64,000 nucleotides of DNA, taken from the NCBI GenBank assembly GCA_025544715.1, contig GCA_025544715.1_4109.3. One strand, written 5' to 3'. Positions 11,896 through 60,545 of the stretch are shown here, piece after piece. The notes under the pieces were generated by a model. The model did no database searches. It was not told the origin of the DNA and saw only the letters and a program-made list of their open reading frames with translations. The position numbers and the translations under genes are program-made. The stretch comes from Escherichia coli. GTDB lineage: Bacteria > Pseudomonadota > Gammaproteobacteria > Enterobacterales > Enterobacteriaceae. Each line of letters opens with the position of its first letter. Position 1 is the stretch's first letter.

Positions 11896-12336
11896 TTATT
11901 GTAAAACTTTAAGTTTGTAAAGTGTTCCTTCAACAAAACTCATAATATCTTCTAATGTGTTTACACTGCCGTAATCACCCGATTCTTCAAGCATATCATG
12001 AATTGCTCTGCATTGCTCAACATATTCTTCAAGAATTGGTACACAATCTTCAATTGGTGTAAAACGATAACTATTACCAGTCCCAACTTGTAAAGCACCA
12101 CGATTATTCATGATACCTTCAACAAATGCGTCTACATATTCTGGTAATTCTTTATATAGTTCATCTAATTGTAAATGCTTTGTATAAAAATGACATTGTA
12201 AGTGCCAGTTATGTGCAGCAGAACTTAAAAACAAACTATTTTCAATAAAAGTTAATAGTACTTCATCATATGAATTATCTTCTTCAGTACTTCCGATAAA
12301 GTCCATTACGTGTCGTAAATCATTAATATCTTCCAT
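11896..12336 (-). CDS. hypothetical protein (146 aa)
   Basis: ORF. Confidence 0.45.
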   Translation of the reverse strand: MEDINDLRHVMDFIGSTEEDNSYDEVLLTFIENSLFLSSAAHNWHLQCHFYTKHLQLDELYKELPEYVDAFVEGIMNNRGALQVGTGNSYRFTPIEDCVPILEEYVEQCRAIHDMLEESGDYGSVNTLEDIMSFVEGTLYKLKVLQ

Positions 12337-12368: not shown

Positions 12369-12797
12369 TTAGTTAATAATAAAGGTAATTTCAGGATTCA
12401 TTTCCGAAACTGCATTTCGTTTACTTCTATCCCATAGTATTCTGTTATTATACAAAGAAGAATCACATACTACAAGTAAGCAATGTCTTAATCTACTTAC
12501 AGTACTTTGATTATTTAAATCAGTTTCTGAAATAAAAAATACATTTTCAGGAACTATTAAAGGAATAGATTTATCAAAAAACAAAACTACAATAGGTCTT
12601 GTTGTATGAACTGATTTAACGAAATCCAAAATACTATTATAAAAATTACTTTCTTTATTAATTACTGACGGATCTTTAATTCTTTTCAAATATTGCTGTG
12701 GTAATTGATGTTCGTCTTTTATCTGGAACTCAAAATATTCTTTGAATAACATTTGTGTTAATTCAGATTTATCGGATATTTTCGTTGTGTTACTCAT
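12369..12797 (-). CDS. hypothetical protein (142 aa)
   Basis: ORF. Confidence 0.45.
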   Translation of the reverse strand: MSNTTKISDKSELTQMLFKEYFEFQIKDEHQLPQQYLKRIKDPSVINKESNFYNSILDFVKSVHTTRPIVVLFFDKSIPLIVPENVFFISETDLNNQSTVSRLRHCLLVVCDSSLYNNRILWDRSKRNAVSEMNPEITFIIN

Positions 12798-12935
12798 TCA
12801 CTTCGTTCTCTCGTAACTCAAGAAGTCACTGCGTTTACTTCGTAAACTAGTTCCTTCTGAAAATGATAATGTACTTTAAAAACTTGACGGGATTTGTTGA
12901 GGACTATTACATCCCCCCGCAGGGGAATGAAGGTA

Positions 12936-12960
12936 ATAAAAAAGAGACAATTAAGTCTCT
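12936..12960 (-). terminator. rho-independent terminator ending the non-coding locus
   Basis: agagac/gtctct stem followed by ttttttatt on minus strand. Confidence 0.45.
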
Positions 12961-13000
12961 CTTGACGATGATGGCATCGGATATTATCGAATTGCGAATT

Positions 13001-13181
13001 TCTCAAATTTTGGACGGATCTTTCTTGTACCAAAATTTAGAGAGCGAAAGCGGGTTGCTCGGTTTCTCTCTATCGCAGTCATATGCAACGGTCGCTGGTC
13101 TTTTCATCAACAGCACTCAGTACTAACTCTATTCGATCAAAGTAGTACCTGTTCTCAAATTTTGGACGCAACTTTCTTGTA
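13001..13181. repeat. direct repeat pair (about 29 bp, 152 bp apart) with associated hairpins
   Basis: tctcaaattttggacg-N4-tttcttgta at 13001..13029 and 13153..13181; first copy sits in a 12-bp bulged stem 13002..13042, second overlaps an 8-bp stem 13164..13192. Confidence 0.6.
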
Positions 13182-13457
13182 AAATTGCGTCCGCTATTCT
13201 TAAACTCCCTTAGCAAATCTGGTAAGGTGCGAACCTTATACATCTATCTAGGAACTCTCTGTATGCTTATCGGAGTTCTTTATACAGCCGTGTCGCCGTG
13301 ATTCGTGGTCTTACATCGTGTTTGTTTAAATGCCAGTACTCTAACAGGTTTCTTCTGCTGTTCGCTACAACGGTAAAGCTCATCTATCCTTTACATTTTC
13401 AAGAGAAGTAGGTTCTCAGTGTCCATTTTTCAATGTCCGTTGTCATTTTCTATATAC

Positions 13458-13466
13458 ATTATATCA
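13458..13466 (-). promoter_or_regulatory. extended -10 promoter element (TGaTATAAT)
   Basis: Minus-strand TGATATAAT downstream of the 13487 stop, reading into the non-coding locus. Confidence 0.35.
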
Positions 13467-13486
13467 TTGGAACATATAATGTCCCA

Positions 13487-13885
13487 TTACATGTATACTT
13501 TTTTTAAATCCTTAGAACAACGATCAAAAATTGTGTTTATGAATTCAACATCTTCGATAATATTCGAATCGTTAGCAACATTTTCATTTCTTGTCGTATT
13601 CCTATATGTGTGTTCAGGATGATTGTATACCACCTTGACTACATTATTTAGGTCTATAAAATTTGACGTTTTTTGCGTATAGGAAGCCTGAAGCTTGATG
13701 AGTTTACCATCATTCTCAAGATTGGTTTTATGAATTAGTTCTTCAATGCCAGTTAAATGGCTATAGCTATCTTTTTCTTTTACAAAAGTAATAGTAACAA
13801 GAACTGCTTTCTCATCTCCCATATCGGAAATGTTTTTTACAGCACTGATAATTTCTAAGTTTGAAAAATCTAATTCTTTAAGCAT
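13487..13885 (-). CDS. hypothetical protein
   Basis: Track ORF 13487..13960 overlaps upstream gene by 74 nt; internal ATG at 13885 follows the upstream stop by 1 nt; start uncertain. Confidence 0.4.
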   Translation of the reverse strand: MLKELDFSNLEIISAVKNISDMGDEKAVLVTITFVKEKDSYSHLTGIEELIHKTNLENDGKLIKLQASYTQKTSNFIDLNNVVKVVYNHPEHTYRNTTRNENVANDSNIIEDVEFINTIFDRCSKDLKKVYM

Positions 13886-13886
13886 T

Positions 13887-14243
13887 TTACAAATATTTCC
13901 ACAAAGTTCGATAAGTGATAATTTCTTCTCTGGTAACAGAAACTTCATTGCACTTAACACCGTCAGTTTCAGTACTGAATGGTTGTACTAGTCTATCTTC
14001 TGTTAAACCTCGTTCATAAGTACAATGATAAAACTTATTTGTGCTCATGTCAAGAAATACGAGATCAAATTCTTCAGTCCACCTTCTGTGTCCTTTGCTT
14101 TCATTGCAGATGATTTTATATTTTACATCTGGTTTAAAAGTTTCAGTACTGTCATCCCATGCACCATAGTCAGTATATTCATCATCTTCATCTAACTCTG
14201 CTAGATGCCACATTAATTGTGGTAAAAAGATTTTAGATTTCAT
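13887..14243 (-). CDS. hypothetical protein (118 aa)
   Basis: ORF with GGAG RBS after terminator. Confidence 0.45.
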   Translation of the reverse strand: MKSKIFLPQLMWHLAELDEDDEYTDYGAWDDSTETFKPDVKYKIICNESKGHRRWTEEFDLVFLDMSTNKFYHCTYERGLTEDRLVQPFSTETDGVKCNEVSVTREEIITYRTLWKYL

Positions 14244-14295: not shown

Positions 14296-14907
14296 TCAAT
14301 CATGTTTATTCAATTTCTTCTGTTCTTTTTTCAAAGCTTTCATATGACGACCAAACTCTCGAACATGCCATAGATGATCGGTTTCCCATAATTCTTGACG
14401 TAACCTACGTTCTTCTAGTAGTTTCGACTTGTCAATGTTATTTTTCTTTTTTTGTACATTAAAGAAATTATTCATATGTTCTTGAAGAAGATTACGACCT
14501 TTAACTTTCTCAAGAAACTCATCAACTGTTTCAGTTTTATTAGAACGTAGTTGATTGCATTTGGAGCACATAGTATTAAAGTTTGTTTCTAAATCAGGAC
14601 CACCCTTAGATGCCAGATGGTTGTGATCAACTGTCATCAACACTTCATAAAGACCACATACAGCATATACATTTAAATGTGGTTTACCATATACTGGATC
14701 AGAACTAAATGAACGTTCAATGCGTACTTCAGTGGCTTCAATCCCACATGCCACGCATTTTGGATTCTTAACAAAAGTAAGAACTTTTTGTGGGAAATAT
14801 CGAAAAGTAATACCATTTAAAGTATAACGTTTCATCTTAGTACTTCGTTGATTTAATTCGTCAAGAAGTGATAATTTTGTCGTATAGTAAACATGATATT
14901 TGTTCAT
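14296..14907 (-). CDS. HNH endonuclease (likely homing endonuclease)
   Basis: CVACG...DHNHLASKGG...N...CSKCNQ HNH/zinc-finger motif; start re-assigned to ATG with AAGGAA RBS (track 14952). Confidence 0.65.
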   Translation of the reverse strand: MNKYHVYYTTKLSLLDELNQRSTKMKRYTLNGITFRYFPQKVLTFVKNPKCVACGIEATEVRIERSFSSDPVYGKPHLNVYAVCGLYEVLMTVDHNHLASKGGPDLETNFNTMCSKCNQLRSNKTETVDEFLEKVKGRNLLQEHMNNFFNVQKKKNNIDKSKLLEERRLRQELWETDHLWHVREFGRHMKALKKEQKKLNKHD

Positions 14908-14908
14908 T

Positions 14909-15217
14909 TTATTCCTTGATATTGATTTTAATATCTTTACCTTGTAAATCACGAATAGTTTTAATTAATGCATCATGTTTTAAAGCACATTCGTTGTATA
15001 CTGCATCCCAACGAGTAAGTACTTTAAGAATTTCTGCACCATCATAACCTTTAAAACCATTTTTGTCAATCATAATTTTTTGTGGTAGAGGTGTATCATC
15101 ATCACATCTTTCTAACAGAATTTCTTGTTTAATTGGTGCAGGGGATTGTAGTTTTACTTGTTCTGCACATCCACTTATAATTAAAAAAGAAATAAACGGA
15201 ACTAATAATTTTTTCAT
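14909..15217 (-). CDS. o-spanin (outer-membrane lipoprotein, Rz1-like)
   Basis: Signal peptide with lipobox ISGC, about 100 aa, start overlaps i-spanin stop (ATGA). Confidence 0.6.
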   Translation of the reverse strand: MKKLLVPFISFLIISGCAEQVKLQSPAPIKQEILLERCDDDTPLPQKIMIDKNGFKGYDGAEILKVLTRWDAVYNECALKHDALIKTIRDLQGKDIKINIKE

Positions 15218-31639: not shown

Positions 31640-31774
31640 TGTACATTCCTTGTATTTTGAAATCATCTGGGGGTGAAGATATTTAATATCACCAGACAAC
31701 ATTATAGCGTCAGAACAGGTTATTTCTCTTGACCTATATCAAGGAAAAGTCACATTGGTTTTTATTTGCACAAA

Positions 31775-31799
31775 TAGAAAAAGCACCACTAGGGTGCTT
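31775..31799 (-). terminator. rho-independent terminator upstream of nrdD
   Basis: aagcacc/ggtgctt stem followed by T-run on minus strand. Confidence 0.45.
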
Positions 31800-31901
31800 T
31801 AAAGTACTGCTAATATAACAACTGCCCAAATTAACAGTAATACATTGGTTGGGGCTGAAAAAATCATATATGCAGCAATTGCACTACAACCTATGACAAG
31901 T

Positions 31902-32087
31902 TTAGCTAGTCTCATCTGGACTCCATGTAATAGTCACTGTGAACGTCCCTTCCTGAAAACCAAACTCATCTTGTGGGATTTGTTCAGCTAATGGGTTAAA
32001 TCTTGAATCGAAGGCTTCATGTACGTCTCTTTGAATATCATAGAGACTTTCACCATCATATTCTTTTTTAAATATTACACTTCCCAT
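31902..32087 (-). CDS. hypothetical protein (61 aa)
   Basis: ORF. Confidence 0.4.
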   Translation of the reverse strand: MGSVIFKKEYDGESLYDIQRDVHEAFDSRFNPLAEQIPQDEFGFQEGTFTVTITWSPDETS

Positions 32088-32100
32088 AATATAACTCCTA

Positions 32101-32316
32101 CTACAAAACGTTACAGTAGAACTGAATGATGTAAGGAAATAAAGGATTATTTACGTATGTTGCAAAATTAGCTATTGTAACTTTTTTATAGTACGAGTTG
32201 TGAATTGTTATAATAGTGTGAGGATCTATTGATTCTCTATTAGAGAGTTCAACAAAACGCCCACACTTCATATAAGCCTTACCATAATAATCGTAAATTA
32301 TATCGTATTTTTCCAT
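32101..32316 (-). CDS. hypothetical protein (71 aa)
   Basis: ORF. Confidence 0.4.
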   Translation of the reverse strand: MEKYDIIYDYYGKAYMKCGRFVELSNRESIDPHTIITIHNSYYKKVTIANFATYVNNPLFPYIIQFYCNVL

Positions 32317-36883: not shown

Positions 36884-36917
36884 ATTATATCATGTATGGG
36901 ACATAATGTCCCATACA
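36884..36917 (-). promoter_or_regulatory. extended -10 promoter with abutting 25-bp palindrome (candidate operator)
   Basis: Minus-strand TGATATAAT (36892..36884) immediately downstream of the perfect palindrome tgtatgggac-ataat-gtcccataca (36893..36917). Confidence 0.45.
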
Positions 36918-53207: not shown

Positions 53208-53951
53208 TTACCTTTTGAAACGATTGAATGAGTACTCATCTTTTTCTTTACGTAAGTATCTCATCCCACCACTTTGTGGAGTAGCAAGAGTTAAGTCACC
53301 CGTCAAGAACTGACTATCAATCCAAATGCGATTACCATAAATGAGTGGTTCAGTAACGGCTGTATGTCCACTAAAGACACAATGCACTCCATCTAACTTA
53401 GGTGCATAATAGGTATTATTCATTCTACAATAATCGAATGTTTTCCTATCCCACAAGCACTTATCAATTATATCAGCACTAAGTGATTTTGTCCCATTAA
53501 CAAATCGTTCCCATGTTGTATATTCCAACGGAACTCCAGCATGAACTAACCCAATCTTCAATCCTCGGTGATTGATTTGGATAATCATGGGTAAATCTTT
53601 TAAGTACTGACGAAAGAATTGAATGCCTGTTCCTCCAACTTCATCAAGGAATTTATCACCACCATTACTTATCCAACAATGATACCAATCTCGAAGTGTT
53701 TCCGAATCAACGCACATCATCTCATGATTACCCGCAATCATGTAACGATTTTCTCCGAACAAAAATTCAAAAAGGAGCTTTGAATTTTGTTCTCCACGGT
53801 CGATAATATCACCTACACTGAAAACATAATCATTGTGTGTAATACCAAATTCTTTCACTGTAGCATCCCATAGTTTACCATTACCATGCAAATCACCTAC
53901 AATGTATAAATCTTTATCATCAGGTACGGTTACTTCTAAGAAATGTTTCAT
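53208..53951 (-). CDS. Ser/Thr protein phosphatase (lambda-PPase-like metallophosphatase)
   Basis: GDLHGN, GDIIDRG, GNHEMM motifs; start set to ATG (MKHFLEV) with GGAG RBS (track 53966). Confidence 0.75.
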   Translation of the reverse strand: MKHFLEVTVPDDKDLYIVGDLHGNGKLWDATVKEFGITHNDYVFSVGDIIDRGEQNSKLLFEFLFGENRYMIAGNHEMMCVDSETLRDWYHCWISNGGDKFLDEVGGTGIQFFRQYLKDLPMIIQINHRGLKIGLVHAGVPLEYTTWERFVNGTKSLSADIIDKCLWDRKTFDYCRMNNTYYAPKLDGVHCVFSGHTAVTEPLIYGNRIWIDSQFLTGDLTLATPQSGGMRYLRKEKDEYSFNRFKR

Positions 53952-55716: not shown

Positions 55717-55725
55717 ATTATATCA
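55717..55725 (-). promoter_or_regulatory. extended -10 promoter element (TGaTATAAT)
   Basis: Minus-strand TGATATAAT within inverted repeat ggtgat...atcacc, about 30 nt upstream of 55359..55685. Confidence 0.35.
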
Positions 55726-55742
55726 CCGAATTCTGATACGTC

Positions 55743-56048
55743 TCATGATATTCGCATTTCATCTATATATAATGAACATGATTCAGAATTATCGTCTAAA
55801 CTTAAACCTAAATCAACCATTAAACCACAATGAGTTCCCCAGAATTTCTTTATGTATAGTTTTTTCCTACTATTACCTAAATCATAAACATATTCATTTT
55901 TAAACATACTTTTTAATTCTTCACATATACATTTTACTATCTTCATTAATTGATTATGATATTCGTATGGTATCCCATCAAGTTCGTTAATTATTAATGC
56001 AAAACCATTATCATAGTACTTTAGCTTATTGAATGTTTGTATATCCAT
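55743..56048 (-). CDS. hypothetical protein (101 aa)
   Basis: ORF. Confidence 0.4.
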   Translation of the reverse strand: MDIQTFNKLKYYDNGFALIINELDGIPYEYHNQLMKIVKCICEELKSMFKNEYVYDLGNSRKKLYIKKFWGTHCGLMVDLGLSLDDNSESCSLYIDEMRIS

Positions 56049-56644: not shown

Positions 56645-56891
56645 TGCAGATCCTTTTAAATTTAGCATTATTAGAATATGTATATGAATGACCAAAATCA
56701 TTTACGCCATGTACATTTAGTACACCGTCACTGAAATAAATTCGTTCAATAGTGAGTTCACGTTTATAATCCCAATCATCATACCAGCACAGAACACGAA
56801 TACCTTTGTACTTTGTAGTTAAATCATTTTCTAATATAGTCAAGTAATCAATATGACTTTTGAATATCTCTAAGTCCTGCTCAAACATCAT
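56637..56891 (-). CDS. small protein, LIGxxV family member
   Basis: KYKGIRVLCWY motif. Confidence 0.45.
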   Translation of the reverse strand: MMFEQDLEIFKSHIDYLTILENDLTTKYKGIRVLCWYDDWDYKRELTIERIYFSDGVLNVHGVNDFGHSYTYSNNAKFKRICNE

Positions 56892-57148
56892 TGTTCCTCG
56901 TATAATTCTATATCATCAACTCCAACTTGGCGAATTGCAGTACTTCTGTTGAATGTATTTTTTTCAAACAAACATACTGTTAAACGTATTTCACACTTCA
57001 ATGCACTGTAATAAATCATATCAATAACACCATATGTTTCATACATTTCTACGTATACATTTCGACCTAAATACTTTTCTTCTAAATCAGTAATTAGACT
57101 ATTGATAAGATTACCTATCTGTGTTATATCTGTGTGAAATTTATCCAT
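56888..57148 (-). CDS. small protein, LIGxxV family member
   Basis: KYLGRNVYVEM motif. Confidence 0.45.
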   Translation of the reverse strand: MDKFHTDITQIGNLINSLITDLEEKYLGRNVYVEMYETYGVIDMIYYSALKCEIRLTVCLFEKNTFNRSTAIRQVGVDDIELYEEQ

Positions 57149-57324
57149 TATAATAAACCTCTCACATAAAACATTGATGAAAATAGATAATCATTAGTAC
57201 TTGTGTTTAGTTGTTTAGAAAAGTTATATTTTTTATCTTTATTTTCGTATAAAGACAATCTATAGAACATTTCTATATTTTCTAAGTATTCTTTTTGTAA
57301 CAACATCTGTGTTTTTACATTCAT
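57148..57324 (-). CDS. hypothetical small protein (58 aa)
   Basis: Start re-assigned to ATG with AAGGT RBS just after the pseT terminator (track 57393). Confidence 0.35.
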   Translation of the reverse strand: MNVKTQMLLQKEYLENIEMFYRLSLYENKDKKYNFSKQLNTSTNDYLFSSMFYVRGLL

Positions 57325-57340
57325 TACAATATACCTTAAA

Positions 57341-57368
57341 AGAAAAAGGGACCAACATATGATCCCTT
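57341..57368 (-). terminator. hairpin terminator after pseT
   Basis: aaaaggga/tccctttt stem followed by T-rich run on minus strand. Confidence 0.4.
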
Positions 57369-57373
57369 TTGTA

Positions 57374-58633: not shown

Positions 58634-58639
58634 ATGTCC

Positions 58640-58894
58640 TCAATTATCTAGAACATCCACTATCAAACAAGCTTCAATAACGAAACAATCATCTAATTCA
58701 AAGAGTAATTGATAGTCATCAGAAAACTTCACTTTAGTAATGTAAGCACTTTCAATTCCACCACTATGATAAGAACTATATAAAATACATTTACCTGTAT
58801 ATTCCTTACGGATACGACTAAATTCTTCATATAAATGAGTAATAAACGTATCCGCAGTTTTGTTGTAGTATTTTAGGTCACTTACTGTGCTCAT
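58640..58894 (-). CDS. small protein, LIGxxV family member
   Basis: KEYTGKCILYSS motif. Confidence 0.4.
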   Translation of the reverse strand: MSTVSDLKYYNKTADTFITHLYEEFSRIRKEYTGKCILYSSYHSGGIESAYITKVKFSDDYQLLFELDDCFVIEACLIVDVLDN

Positions 58895-59108
58895 TAACTT
58901 TTCCTACTCCAAATCGTTTGGAGATTTTCACAAGTACAGATTCATCACAACGAATACTAGCTGTATCATTGGATGAACTGTACTTTAATGGGGTCCACTG
59001 TAATTGAGATTCTTCTAGGAACTTGATACATCTGAAGTAATCTTTCAGAGAAAGAAATTTAACTACTGACATATCCTGAACAATACTATGCTGAACTTCA
59101 ACTTTCAT
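58878..59108 (-). CDS. hypothetical protein (76 aa)
   Basis: ORF. Confidence 0.4.
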   Translation of the reverse strand: MKVEVQHSIVQDMSVVKFLSLKDYFRCIKFLEESQLQWTPLKYSSSNDTASIRCDESVLVKISKRFGVGKVNEHSK

Positions 59109-59117
59109 ATGAACTCC

Positions 59118-59375
59118 TTATAGTGGATCAAATTTATTTTCACGTTTCGATGTATAGCGAGTTACATCATGTATTCTCGGCTTAACACCTTTTGGTTTCC
59201 TTTTCTTCTTGTATTCAGTACTACTACATCCGAAGGTATTCTCGATTCGTTTCTTACTTATCTTCACACCTTTCATTGAGCGTTTGTGCTGTAATTCATC
59301 GATTTCTTCTTGTATTTTCCTGAACTCAGTCGGAGAAAGGGAACCGTCATTTTTATACTTAGGTTTAGCCATCAC
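59118..59375 (-). CDS. hypothetical basic protein (85 aa)
   Basis: Lys/Arg-rich. Confidence 0.4.
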   Translation of the reverse strand: MMAKPKYKNDGSLSPTEFRKIQEEIDELQHKRSMKGVKISKKRIENTFGCSSTEYKKKRKPKGVKPRIHDVTRYTSKRENKFDPL

Positions 59376-59402
59376 TTCTCCTTGTGCTTAGGCTAGATAG
59401 TA

Positions 59403-60545
59403 CTAAAAATCCTTTAGTACAATTTTCATGTATTTTATAAGAGTCTCTTTGTAATCAACTTTCTTATTGTTATACATTGCAAAGGCCAAGCCCTGACGAT
59501 TCAGTTCATTAGTTAAACACTCCTGAACCTTCATTGCGAATTCCTTTCGCTCCAAGTGCTTGTGTTCCTTGACGAAGCTTTCTACTTCATCTTGTAATGC
59601 ATTATAGCACGAAAATACCAATTGTTCCATTCTTAATATCTTTTGCATAGCATATTCATCAGTACTGAACAATTGTTTTAAATCATCACTTGAACCATTT
59701 AATACGGCTTCATATAAATGAGAATCAATAATAATACTATCTTTTGTAAGATGTAATGAACTGTACCAGTCAGTCTTTATTTTACACATTGTTCCATTAT
59801 TTAGGATGCACACAAAACCCTCAATATCAAGCATTTTATGAACTTCCTCCACGCTTTCACGGAAGGTATTTCGTACCGGAAAAGTGTGATGAATATCTTT
59901 TCCTGTCATATTAGTACTGTACTGTGCAAGACATGGAAACTTATCACGTAGTGCTTTACCACATAGCAACTCACCACTCACACGATGTCGAACGTTCAGT
60001 ACAAACAGTTGTTCTACCTGATATGGTAATACAATTCGGTACTCTGGGCTTGTATACTCCATATTAACTGTGTAACCTAAACGTTCCGCTTCGTCGATGT
60101 ACTGATACAAATTCTGGTTCTCGTTAATAAGTCGAGTACTGTTAATCGCATGGTCAGAATACAATGCAGTATGTGATTTACAACGAATCTCACCATCATT
60201 ATCACGATAAGTACTGATGATCGAACCATCCAACTTAGGCATAACTACCGCAATGTCATCGCATGTGGTGTTAGCAGGGAACATTGTAGCAGGATTCTCG
60301 TAAGCATTAAAGAACTTTTTCATTGTACGTGCTGCACAACGTATCATGTCACCTTCTTCATCAATTTCCCACATAGAGCCACGGGTTTCCAACGCATTTG
60401 GTTGCATGAAATCAGTGTATGATGCTAGACGATAACTGAATACACGATACGTACCACCAGCAGGACTTTTATGATCCACATAAAAGAACGCATCGTTTGT
60501 ATTACATAAGTGCATTAAATCTTCATATATTTGCAAAAGGGTCAT
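59403..60545 (-). CDS. rnlA: RNA ligase 1
   Basis: Adenylation motif KLDGS and N-terminal similarity to T4 RnlA (GGTYRVFSY, ETRG, KFFN). Confidence 0.85.
   Translation of the reverse strand: MTLLQIYEDLMHLCNTNDAFFYVDHKSPAGGTYRVFSYRLASYTDFMQPNALETRGSMWEIDEEGDMIRCAARTMKKFFNAYENPATMFPANTTCDDIAVVMPKLDGSIISTYRDNDGEIRCKSHTALYSDHAINSTRLINENQNLYQYIDEAERLGYTVNMEYTSPEYRIVLPYQVEQLFVLNVRHRVSGELLCGKALRDKFPCLAQYSTNMTGKDIHHTFPVRNTFRESVEEVHKMLDIEGFVCILNNGTMCKIKTDWYSSLHLTKDSIIIDSHLYEAVLNGSSDDLKQLFSTDEYAMQKILRMEQLVFSCYNALQDEVESFVKEHKHLERKEFAMKVQECLTNELNRQGLAFAMYNNKKVDYKETLIKYMKIVLKDF

Follow-up and report, generated by a model that had tools for sequence, protein, structure and literature searches.

What occupies positions 12798-13486 of a 64,000-nucleotide contig filed under Escherichia coli (GCA_025544715.1_4109.3; the whole stretch is called the window here), in the gap between two minus-strand open reading frames (ORFs; 12369-12797 and 13487-13960)? 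A preliminary description, made from the letters alone, had left three readings of this locus side by side: a structured RNA, an iteron-type replication or packaging element, or a decayed gene. Comparison with homologues indicates that a stable, highly structured noncoding RNA (ncRNA) of ~0.5 kb is encoded here on the minus strand, by a gene that stands alone and has ancient paralogues. The source of the window is an Asteriusvirus jumbo phage of the PBECO4/121Q/slurp01 type; positions 12600-13700 are 99.5% identical to Escherichia phage vB_Eco_slurp01, the genome of which spans ~348 kb.

A conserved gap without a conserved reading frame

No ORF of at least 90 aa spans the gap, in agreement with the preliminary description, which had also taken it for the only long stretch of this kind; eight other gaps of 357-830 bp likewise lack such an ORF, and the gap studied here has the highest GC content among them. 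The GC elevation reported earlier is real, at lower values than the 45-48% first given: we measured 39.5% in the gap, with a peak of 41-43% in 200-nt windows, against 33.3% for the window.

The noncoding stretch matches 72 phage records at 266 places in blastn searches, 3-5 per genome. Homologues from Asteriusvirus are 95-99.8% identical, those of Escherichia phages JNE01, A4, and Turkey5 77-86%, and those of Cronobacter GAP32, Pectobacterium CBB, Yersinia fHe-Yen9-03/04, Serratia BF, the Erwinia pEa_SNUABM phages, and the Salmonella Munch/7t3/EJP2 group 66-75%; Eneladusvirus is also among the homologue groups. In RaK2 and K64-1, blastn aligns 49 nt only, and RaK2 carries a full-length divergent copy (E 5.6e-44) beside a sigma-factor gene, partly annotated as a hypothetical protein. 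Judged by sequence identity the element is more conserved than its coding flanks (in TH47, 96.7% for the noncoding core versus 91.6% for a 1.1-kb query that includes coding flanks). For comparative work, a conserved 24-nt pattern was used to retrieve 21 IMG/VR and 36 metagenome loci; nhmmer confirmed 49 matches, 33 of which are unique and full-length and form our homologue set.

Among these 33 homologues the longest stretch free of stop codons (median 75 aa) is found now on one strand and now on the other, in changing frames, indels between the aligned slurp01 paralogues are not multiples of three, and a Pfam search of local ORFs in the gap homologues returned nothing above threshold. No intact protein gene is conserved among them. 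In GenBank records the element is either unannotated or overlaid by small "hypothetical proteins," which are spurious; a small ORF following a Shine-Dalgarno-like UAAGGGAG was set aside after inspection by eye as not conserved. In view of the lack of a conserved frame, the non-triplet indels, conservation above that of the flanks, and four conserved paralogues, we reject a decayed gene.

Promoter and terminator

The gap is bracketed by transcription signals on the minus strand, from which a primary transcript can be predicted:

13458..13486, minus strand: promoter, with a -35-like TGGGACA (13486-13480), a TG extension, and the -10 hexamer TATAAT (13463-13458)
12936..13451, minus strand: predicted primary transcript of paralogue A, ~516 nt, bounded by promoter and terminator
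12936..12960, minus strand: intrinsic terminator as read from sequence, GAGAC-UUAAUU-GUCUC followed by UUUUUUAUU

Read as GGGACA, a 16-nt spacer, and TG-n-TATAAT (13485-13458), the promoter agrees with consensus at 10 of 12 positions and has the TG; transcription would start near 13451. The extended -10 element noted earlier at this end is therefore present, and all 33 unique homologues have a perfect TATAAT at the equivalent position immediately beyond the folded core, mostly as TGnTATAAT and preceded 17-18 nt upstream by TGGGACA, TGGAACA, or TGAAACG. The hairpin and T-run seen earlier at the other end are likewise readable in the sequence, and most homologues have an equivalent: a covarying terminator hairpin with a U-run (the alignment columns are gapped in 5/33). 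A simple scanner does not call the terminator at 12936-12960, in our reading because its stem can extend into the T-run. A good terminator hairpin is absent from the lineages that we call C and D (see below) and from the RaK2 copy.

The promoter belongs to a class, TGGGACA-N14-TG(A/C)TATAAT, with ~20 sites in the slurp01 genome and six in the window, against 0.58 expected from shuffles. The further sites in the window are:

2712-2740, 36884-36913, 53467-53496, 55717-55745, and 59601-59629, all minus strand: TGGGACA/TGAGACG/TGGAACA-N14-TG(A/C)TATAAT

Sites of this class are codirectional with local genes in the window and in most other cases, and the genes that follow them serve replication, recombination, and nucleotide metabolism; one site (slurp01 13774-13802) precedes a tRNA-Ser/Arg cluster. 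A "divergent RpoD-like" promoter of the same class, with a TGAAACG -35, lies upstream of DNA-synthesis genes in CBB and GAP32 (PMC5259590). The class is probably the middle promoter class of the phage.

In copy C (L014/L004) we also observe, within the first 40 nt after TATAAT and before the conserved core, a perfect terminator-like hairpin with a U7 run (GGUGAC...GUCACCUUUUUUU); it may serve for attenuation or, as a bidirectional terminator, end transcription of the upstream gene.

A two-domain fold with two pseudoknots

Folded singly, the sequence has a minimum free energy (MFE) of -127 kcal/mol and a z-score of -3.3. An alignment of 22 sequences in the minus sense (A1) was folded with RNAalifold, and the 3' domain of 30 sequences was realigned with a covariance model (A3; the model is limited to at most 400 columns and covers the 3' domain). 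Of 77 pairs predicted from A1, 47 show compensatory changes; column shuffling lowers the share of paired alignment cells from 97.0% to 82.3%, and on every measure all 500 shuffles fall short of the real alignment. Pairing drops to 37-47% once the 3' partners are shifted by 1-3 columns. In A3, the 31 pairs, including two pseudoknots, are 98.9% paired and 23 are doubly changed. An unbiased scan for covarying antiparallel column runs recovers P5, P7, P9, PK1, PK2, and P11 and nothing else. Folding with covariation across homologous phages, which the preliminary description had proposed as a check, thus gives compensatory changes beyond all shuffled and slid controls, and the comparative evidence indicates at least 13 conserved helices, arranged in two domains, with two covariation-backed pseudoknots. 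Its parts in the window copy are:

13205..13411, minus strand: 5' domain, helices 2 and 4-8, most pairs compensatory
13411-13401/13391-13384, minus strand: P2, covariation
13379-13375/13368-13364, minus strand: P4, covariation
13361-13357/13288-13284, minus strand: P5, covariation; together with P6 encloses a variable insert
13347-13344/13299-13296, minus strand: P6, covariation
13278-13273/13257-13252, minus strand: P7, covariation
13238-13235/13226-13223, minus strand: P8, covariation
13214-13205, minus strand: invariant GCUAAGGGAG, after P8, at the end of the 5' domain
13119..13149 (13149-13139/13130-13119), minus strand: P9, 12-bp hairpin with an 8-nt loop
13137-13131 with 12986..12992, minus strand: PK1, seven pairs between AUCGAAU of the P9 loop and AUUCGAU
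13093..13115, minus strand: P10 hairpin, 4/5 pairs compensatory
13054..13089, minus strand: PK2, junction GUUGC (13089-13085) with GCAAC (13058-13054) in the P12 loop, covariation
12993..13077 (13077-13073/12997-12993), minus strand: P11, enclosing P12 and P13
13070-13066/13050-13046, minus strand: P12, varying in RaK2 only, and there compensatorily
13043-13041/13003-13001, minus strand: P13, inside P11

The P9 stem forms in 25/25 distinct sequences despite very different sequence, and seven of its eight loop bases pair in PK1 with the strand directly 3' of P11; all seven PK1 pairs have changed on both sides and are 99.5% paired across the 30 sequences. PK2 is 100% paired in the same set, three of its pairs having changed on both sides (GUUAC/GUAAC, GUUGA/UCAAC, and GUCAU/AUGAC); apart from these variants the P12 loop is invariant. 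GAAA tetraloops often cap peripheral hairpins in the homologues. The GNRA-like context that had been pointed out at GCGAAAGC is not a tetraloop: in the RNA sense it reads GCUUUCGC, and its CUUUC is the 3' strand of P12. A helix closing the 5' and 3' ends, suggested by a 30-nt inverted repeat (12859-88/13421-50), was discarded as not conserved (duplex z ~0 in other homologues).

The minus strand as the RNA strand

An initial plus-strand RNAalifold run gave 339 G·U versus 75 A·C pairs, and TTGACG-N17 looked promoter-like, so that a plus-strand RNA was considered. Over pairs predicted on both strands the counts are 41 G·U versus 65 A·C, without asymmetry, and we therefore regard the plus-strand excess as an artefact of the predictor; whole-sequence MFEs are equal for the two strands. 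P9 was then folded in both senses with its loop held open in the 25 distinct sequences: its mean energy is -10.8 kcal/mol in the minus sense and -4.8 kcal/mol in the plus sense, the minus sense being more stable in 24/25, and G·U pairs number 54 in its minus-sense stems against 2 in the plus-sense ones. Read in the minus direction, the unpaired columns contain 39% A and 14% C. Four independent lines (the conserved TATAAT, the covarying terminator, the A-rich unpaired columns, and the P9 test, which is decisive) identify the minus strand as the RNA strand. The orientation proposed in the preliminary description is borne out by promoter, terminator, and the G·U test on P9.

No match to known RNA families

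A covariance-model search for known RNAs, also proposed earlier, assigns no family. Rfam 15, which includes models for group I/II introns, RNase P, tmRNA, 6S, GOLLD, ROOL, OLE, HEARO, raiA, and riboswitches, gives no match at gathering thresholds in the window, chance-level matches only (E of at least 1) in 12600-13700 when E values up to 10 are admitted, and no match that recurs among 10 divergent homologue loci; no gene for a tRNA or tmRNA is called by ARAGORN in the window. A group I/II intron is rejected: the element lies between separate genes, is furnished with a promoter and terminator of its own, and has no Rfam intron match, and in our reading its order P9-PK1-P10-PK2-P11-P12-P13 is unlike the P3-P8 topology. 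Three apparent resemblances were set aside, to the tmRNA 5' motif (UCGACGGGAUUUG, on the wrong strand), to RNase P (ACAGAGAGCAAACCGCC), and between GCUAAG and the 11-nt tetraloop receptor. No mention of the element was found in the papers that could be searched.

The locus carries the sequence features of an independently transcribed ncRNA gene, namely a promoter, a Rho-independent terminator, no conserved ORF, and a conserved structure. The structured-RNA reading, one of the three first offered, is upheld by the conserved promoter and terminator and by extensive compensatory changes.

A direct-repeat module that changes position

The direct repeat noticed in the preliminary description is real (30 nt, 93% identical, 13000-13029 and 13152-13181), as are an inverted repeat (13164-13175/13181-13192) at the stem placed at 13164..13192 and the bulged stem at 13002-13042, which is the stem of the second module copy. 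The repeat is a module of ~30 nt, UACAA...CGUCYAAAAUU, borne on a hairpin:

13152..13192, minus strand: module at site 1, hairpin GGACGCAA/UUGCGUCC, loop containing UACAAGAAAG, then CAAAAUU; contains repeat 13152-13181
13000..13044, minus strand: module at site 2, long stem inside P13, motif UACAAGAAAG...CGUCCAAAAUU; contains repeat 13000-13029

Depending on lineage, the module sits at the tip after GCUAAGGGAG, at the P13 tip, at both (the window copy), or at neither (copy B); lineages without it at site 1 have a plain hairpin there, GNRA-tipped in some. In large folded RNAs, peripheral elements that make tertiary contacts or bind proteins typically change places in this way; iterons do not look like this.

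These observations bear on whether the locus acts purely as DNA, through iterons, a pac site, or single-stranded DNA hairpins, or is a decayed gene after all. The 30-bp direct repeat and repeated TTGACG boxes would suit a DNA element, as would the missing G·U asymmetry over commonly predicted pairs. The repeat, however, is missing in copy B and occupies alternative hairpin tips in other lineages, the 54 G·U pairs of P9 occur in one sense only, promoter and terminator bracket the folded part, and no reading frame is conserved; we consider these readings largely refuted and very improbable. Specifically for iterons, copy A alone has a 30-bp pair, other copies have one module at either site, and copy B has none. 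An iteron origin would show at least three regularly spaced repeats of ~17-22 bp in all copies, an A/T-rich region, and usually a Rep gene, an arrangement not found here.

Ancient paralogues dispersed around the genome

The slurp01 genome holds four copies: D at ~29.5 kb, directly downstream of the phage rpoD-like sigma gene; C at ~135.4 kb; A, the window copy, at ~188 kb; and B at ~267 kb. B, C, and D each lie in an ORF-free gap of slurp01 (local blastn). The paralogues are ~70% identical, with perfectly identical blocks, and a search with the 3'-domain covariance model yields exactly four slurp01 copies in addition to the window, with scores of 136-165 bits. In a neighbor-joining tree of the 3' domain, copies cluster by lineage and not by genome: Asteriusvirus D groups with the sigma-adjacent RaK2 copy, with which it shares synteny; A, B, and C each group with different metagenomic lineages; and the two BF copies fall in separate clades, as do the two Yen9-04 copies. 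The tree therefore indicates that the duplications are older than the phage genera and that every lineage has been retained. Wherever several copies were retrieved from a genome, all are on one strand, including copy B, which runs opposite to its neighbors.

Full-length homologues also occur on contigs filed as bacterial (L145 3540-4051, L087 2855-3395, and L113 6425-7027; also L170 and L174). A scan of bacterial genome contigs with a 16-base pattern gave mostly chance matches, and only these five loci are real; their sources include Silvania hatchlandensis H19S6 (a 185-kb contig) and metagenome-assembled genomes (MAGs) of Buttiauxella and of an Enterobacteriaceae member. All five probably represent jumbo phages whose contigs ended up in assemblies of isolates or MAGs.

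Conserved DNA past the terminator and two cis-acting alternatives

Conservation continues beyond the transcript end, in the following elements:

12962..12967, minus strand: CGUCAA box just before the terminator, CGUCAG in most other genera
12907..12932, minus strand: GC hairpin UCAUUCCCC-UGCG-GGGGGAUG, helix 15, after the terminator
12884..12897, minus strand: conserved tail ACAAAUCCCGUCAA (ACAAAUCYCGUCAR), holding the second CGUCA box
12798..12883, minus strand: leader to the ORF starting at 12797, with hairpin GUUUAC-GAA-GUAAAC at 12847-12833

The GC hairpin varies only by U·G to C-G, pairing being kept in the minus sense, and the A/G variant agrees between the two CGUCA boxes within each sequence; 2-4 CGTCA boxes are present. 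Many members have an A/T-rich stretch with a TATAAA-like motif after the tail. The leader hairpin is related to conserved downstream hairpins of other members, in which a further covarying hairpin, UUGACAUUC-GAA-GAAUGGCAA, occurs. A possible loose resemblance of the GC hairpin (UUCCCC...GGGGAU(G)AAA) to a type I-E CRISPR repeat was set aside.

Separately, the paralogues share a cassette 60-150 nt past the RNA tail, consisting of GAAUUGAGUU, a variable hairpin, and ACGAAAAUUCUUUGACAUUCGAAGAAUGGCAAAUC; it is found in L011, L015, L021, L024, L030, and others and more weakly in the window at 12798-12883. Its end, ACGAAAAUUCUUUGACAUUCGAAGAAUGGCAAAUC, folds into a covarying hairpin that is capped by a GAA loop and includes an A·G mismatch, and it contains a perfect TTGACA. 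UP-element RpoD-like early promoters have been reported for CBB, and the cassette may be such a promoter or an RNA element.

The conserved downstream DNA and the dispersion of the paralogues raise the possibility that each copy is a replication origin, at which the RNA, or read-through from it, forms a persistent RNA-DNA hybrid downstream and primes the leading strand, as at T4 ori(uvsY) and ori(34), with the RNA fold controlling hybrid formation as for ColE1 RNA II. The 4-5 copies are dispersed (29.5, 135, 188, and 267 kb) and share one strand even where, as for B, the neighbors oppose them; retention of every paralogue at a fixed position fits a role in cis; the promoter class is common to replication genes, and the phage has a gene for RNase HI as well as replication and recombination genes of the T4 type. 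The RNA is about the size of ColE1 RNA II, and the DNA past the terminator has a G6 run, repeated CGTCA boxes, and then an A/T-rich stretch. Against this, a canonical terminator precedes that DNA, and no known primer RNA comes near the elaboration of a double-pseudoknot fold with invariant loops. GC skew over the whole genome tracks gene orientation and shows nothing special at the four positions; because it merely follows gene orientation, we discarded it as an indicator of origins. We regard an origin transcript as rather unlikely, though as the leading alternative to our preferred reading.

A second cis-acting possibility is a regulatory RNA, either an exceptionally long leader or a put-like processive antiterminator as in HK022, that modifies the transcribing polymerase or senses a signal and so controls read-through of its own terminator. 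Lineages A, C, and D do show promoter, structured RNA, terminator, and co-oriented genes in succession; C, D, and RaK2 lack a strong terminator; and a conserved leader with hairpins follows the element. B-lineage copies, however, have no co-oriented downstream gene in several genera, where they face a convergent gene and a bidirectional terminator, for which reason we rejected a riboswitch or leader. The downstream genes moreover vary by lineage (putatively ADP-ribosylglycohydrolase-like, a DNA methylase, and unknowns, as we read the translations), and ~470 nt is several times the length of any known riboswitch or put RNA. Such a role seems improbable to us.

How the RNA may act

We favor, with some reservation, an RNA that acts through its three-dimensional fold, as a ribonucleoprotein (RNP) scaffold or as a self-assembling or ribozyme-like RNA made together with the replication-phase genes; the invariant junctions and loops, the tetraloops, and the swappable modules are our reasons for preferring a folded RNA. 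It does not appear to act by simple antisense pairing or as a DNA site. In this scheme, transcription during infection would begin at the TGGGACA-type -35/extended -10 phage promoter and end at the intrinsic terminator, the RNA would fold into two domains locked by the two pseudoknots, and the folded product would bind proteins as a scaffold, assemble with itself, or act in the manner of a ribozyme.

Several points weigh against the folded-RNA reading. Conservation as strong as that of the RNA extends over the ~50 nt after the terminator, outside the predicted transcript. The ncRNAs detected by RNA-seq in the related phage PA5oct are not homologous to the RNA at the two loci compared, and no partner protein came to light. 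A purely trans-acting RNA would have no obvious need for 4-5 diverged, position-conserved copies on one strand. Finally, because C, D, and RaK2 have no good terminator hairpin, those copies may be cotranscribed with downstream genes.

A decoy RNA for anti-defense or host takeover, sequestering a host nuclease, RNA chaperone, or immune sensor, is a special case of a folded RNA and no true rival to it. The near-consensus -10 with its extension would fit strong expression, and the multiple copies are in keeping with such a role, as would be the possible likeness of the GC hairpin to a CRISPR repeat, but the element is nearly invariant across hosts with differing defenses (Escherichia, Klebsiella, Erwinia, Yersinia, Serratia, and Xanthomonas), and no similarity to a known decoy was found; we give this idea little credence.

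Neighboring genes and other gaps

The flanking proteins (DUF7325, an unknown protein, a Dps/ferritin-like DUF5856 protein, and an HNH endonuclease) offer no functional clue to the RNA gene. The free-standing HNH endonuclease gene (14296-14952, minus strand; PHROG 23285, E 1.8e-128; Pfam HNH) is located upstream, ~0.8 kb away from the RNA promoter, and an association with other paralogues was not seen. The Dps/ferritin-like gene (11896-12336, minus strand; DUF5856; PHROG 858, "starvation-inducible transcriptional regulator") is two genes downstream of the RNA. As called mechanically, the ORF at 13487-13960 (minus strand, 157 aa) starts with GTG at 13960 and overlaps the preceding ORF (13887-14243, minus strand). 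Its DUF7325/PHROG 9016 match begins at residue 26 and the slurp01 product is annotated with 132 aa, so that the true start is probably an ATG near 13885.

Among the other stretches free of an ORF of at least 90 aa, four of 0.6-0.8 kb (1408-2237, 31703-32316, 56702-57373, and 58634-59402) have GC content near background and no Rfam or tRNA match; as in the slurp01 annotation, they probably hold small genes.

Comparison with known systems

ColE1 RNA II, of ~550 nt, is driven by a promoter, acts at its own locus, and decides primer formation by its folding, and T4 has several dispersed origins with middle-mode promoters. The RNA described here differs from both in ending at an intrinsic terminator, in its much more complex conserved fold, and in having no antisense regulator that we could see. 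HK022 put RNAs are likewise paralogous, structured, and placed downstream of phage promoters and upstream of terminators; they comprise two stem-loops in ~70 nt, whereas the present RNA is seven times larger and its B-lineage copies have no gene to read into.

In the distantly related jumbo phage PA5oct, RNA-seq revealed four ORF-free transcribed loci of 236-619 nt, the "putative lncRNAs" ncRNA001-004 (PMC7318152). We found no homology of ncRNA001, 002, or 004 (two loci) to the present RNA with nhmmer (--max) or the covariance model, and a relationship to the PA5oct transcripts was accordingly dropped. The 3' end of ncRNA004 (UUCCUUCCCAAACGGGGAGGAAAU, L068 1173-1217) weakly resembles the segment of U-run and GC hairpin (nhmmer E 0.04 in a tiny database), a likeness that is likely due to chance.

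With no Rfam model, published description, or annotation covering it, we rate the element as a new RNA class. To our knowledge, large, intricately folded, pseudoknotted RNAs are rare in bacteria and phages, with only about a dozen classes known, and such RNAs have repeatedly proved to be ribozymes, RNP cores, or self-assembling RNA cages. More tentatively, and as a possibility that we hold well short of probable, the element may be a large ornate RNA class specific to the RaK2-like jumbo phages, with a function unlike that of any known RNA, as a hetero-oligomeric RNA or RNP machine, a new ribozyme, or a set of origin-defining structured primers. Action in trans would add a new RNA-based function to jumbo-phage infection, and a role at origins would give the first handle on where replication starts in genomes of ~350 kb. 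The system is tractable: the RNA belongs to culturable phages of E. coli, Salmonella, Klebsiella, Erwinia, and Yersinia, several of these phages have been characterized for therapy or biocontrol, the transcription signals are clear, and the structural model is backed by covariation.

The closest parallels are GOLLD, ROOL, and OLE, which, like the present RNA, are multi-helix, pseudoknotted ncRNAs of several hundred nucleotides found by comparative analysis, GOLLD and ROOL being phage-associated; their functions are unknown or only emerging. All three are reported to form homo-oligomeric RNA-only complexes (PMC12286853). The peripheral GNRA loops and swappable modules of the present RNA suggest a compact tertiary or quaternary fold. 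The likeness is one of kind and extends neither to sequence nor to structure, no Rfam 15 model being matched even when E values up to 10 are admitted, and the setting differs: the present RNA occurs in RaK2-like jumbo myoviruses of Enterobacterales, with 4-5 diverged paralogues per genome, which in a hetero-oligomer would be its distinct subunits.

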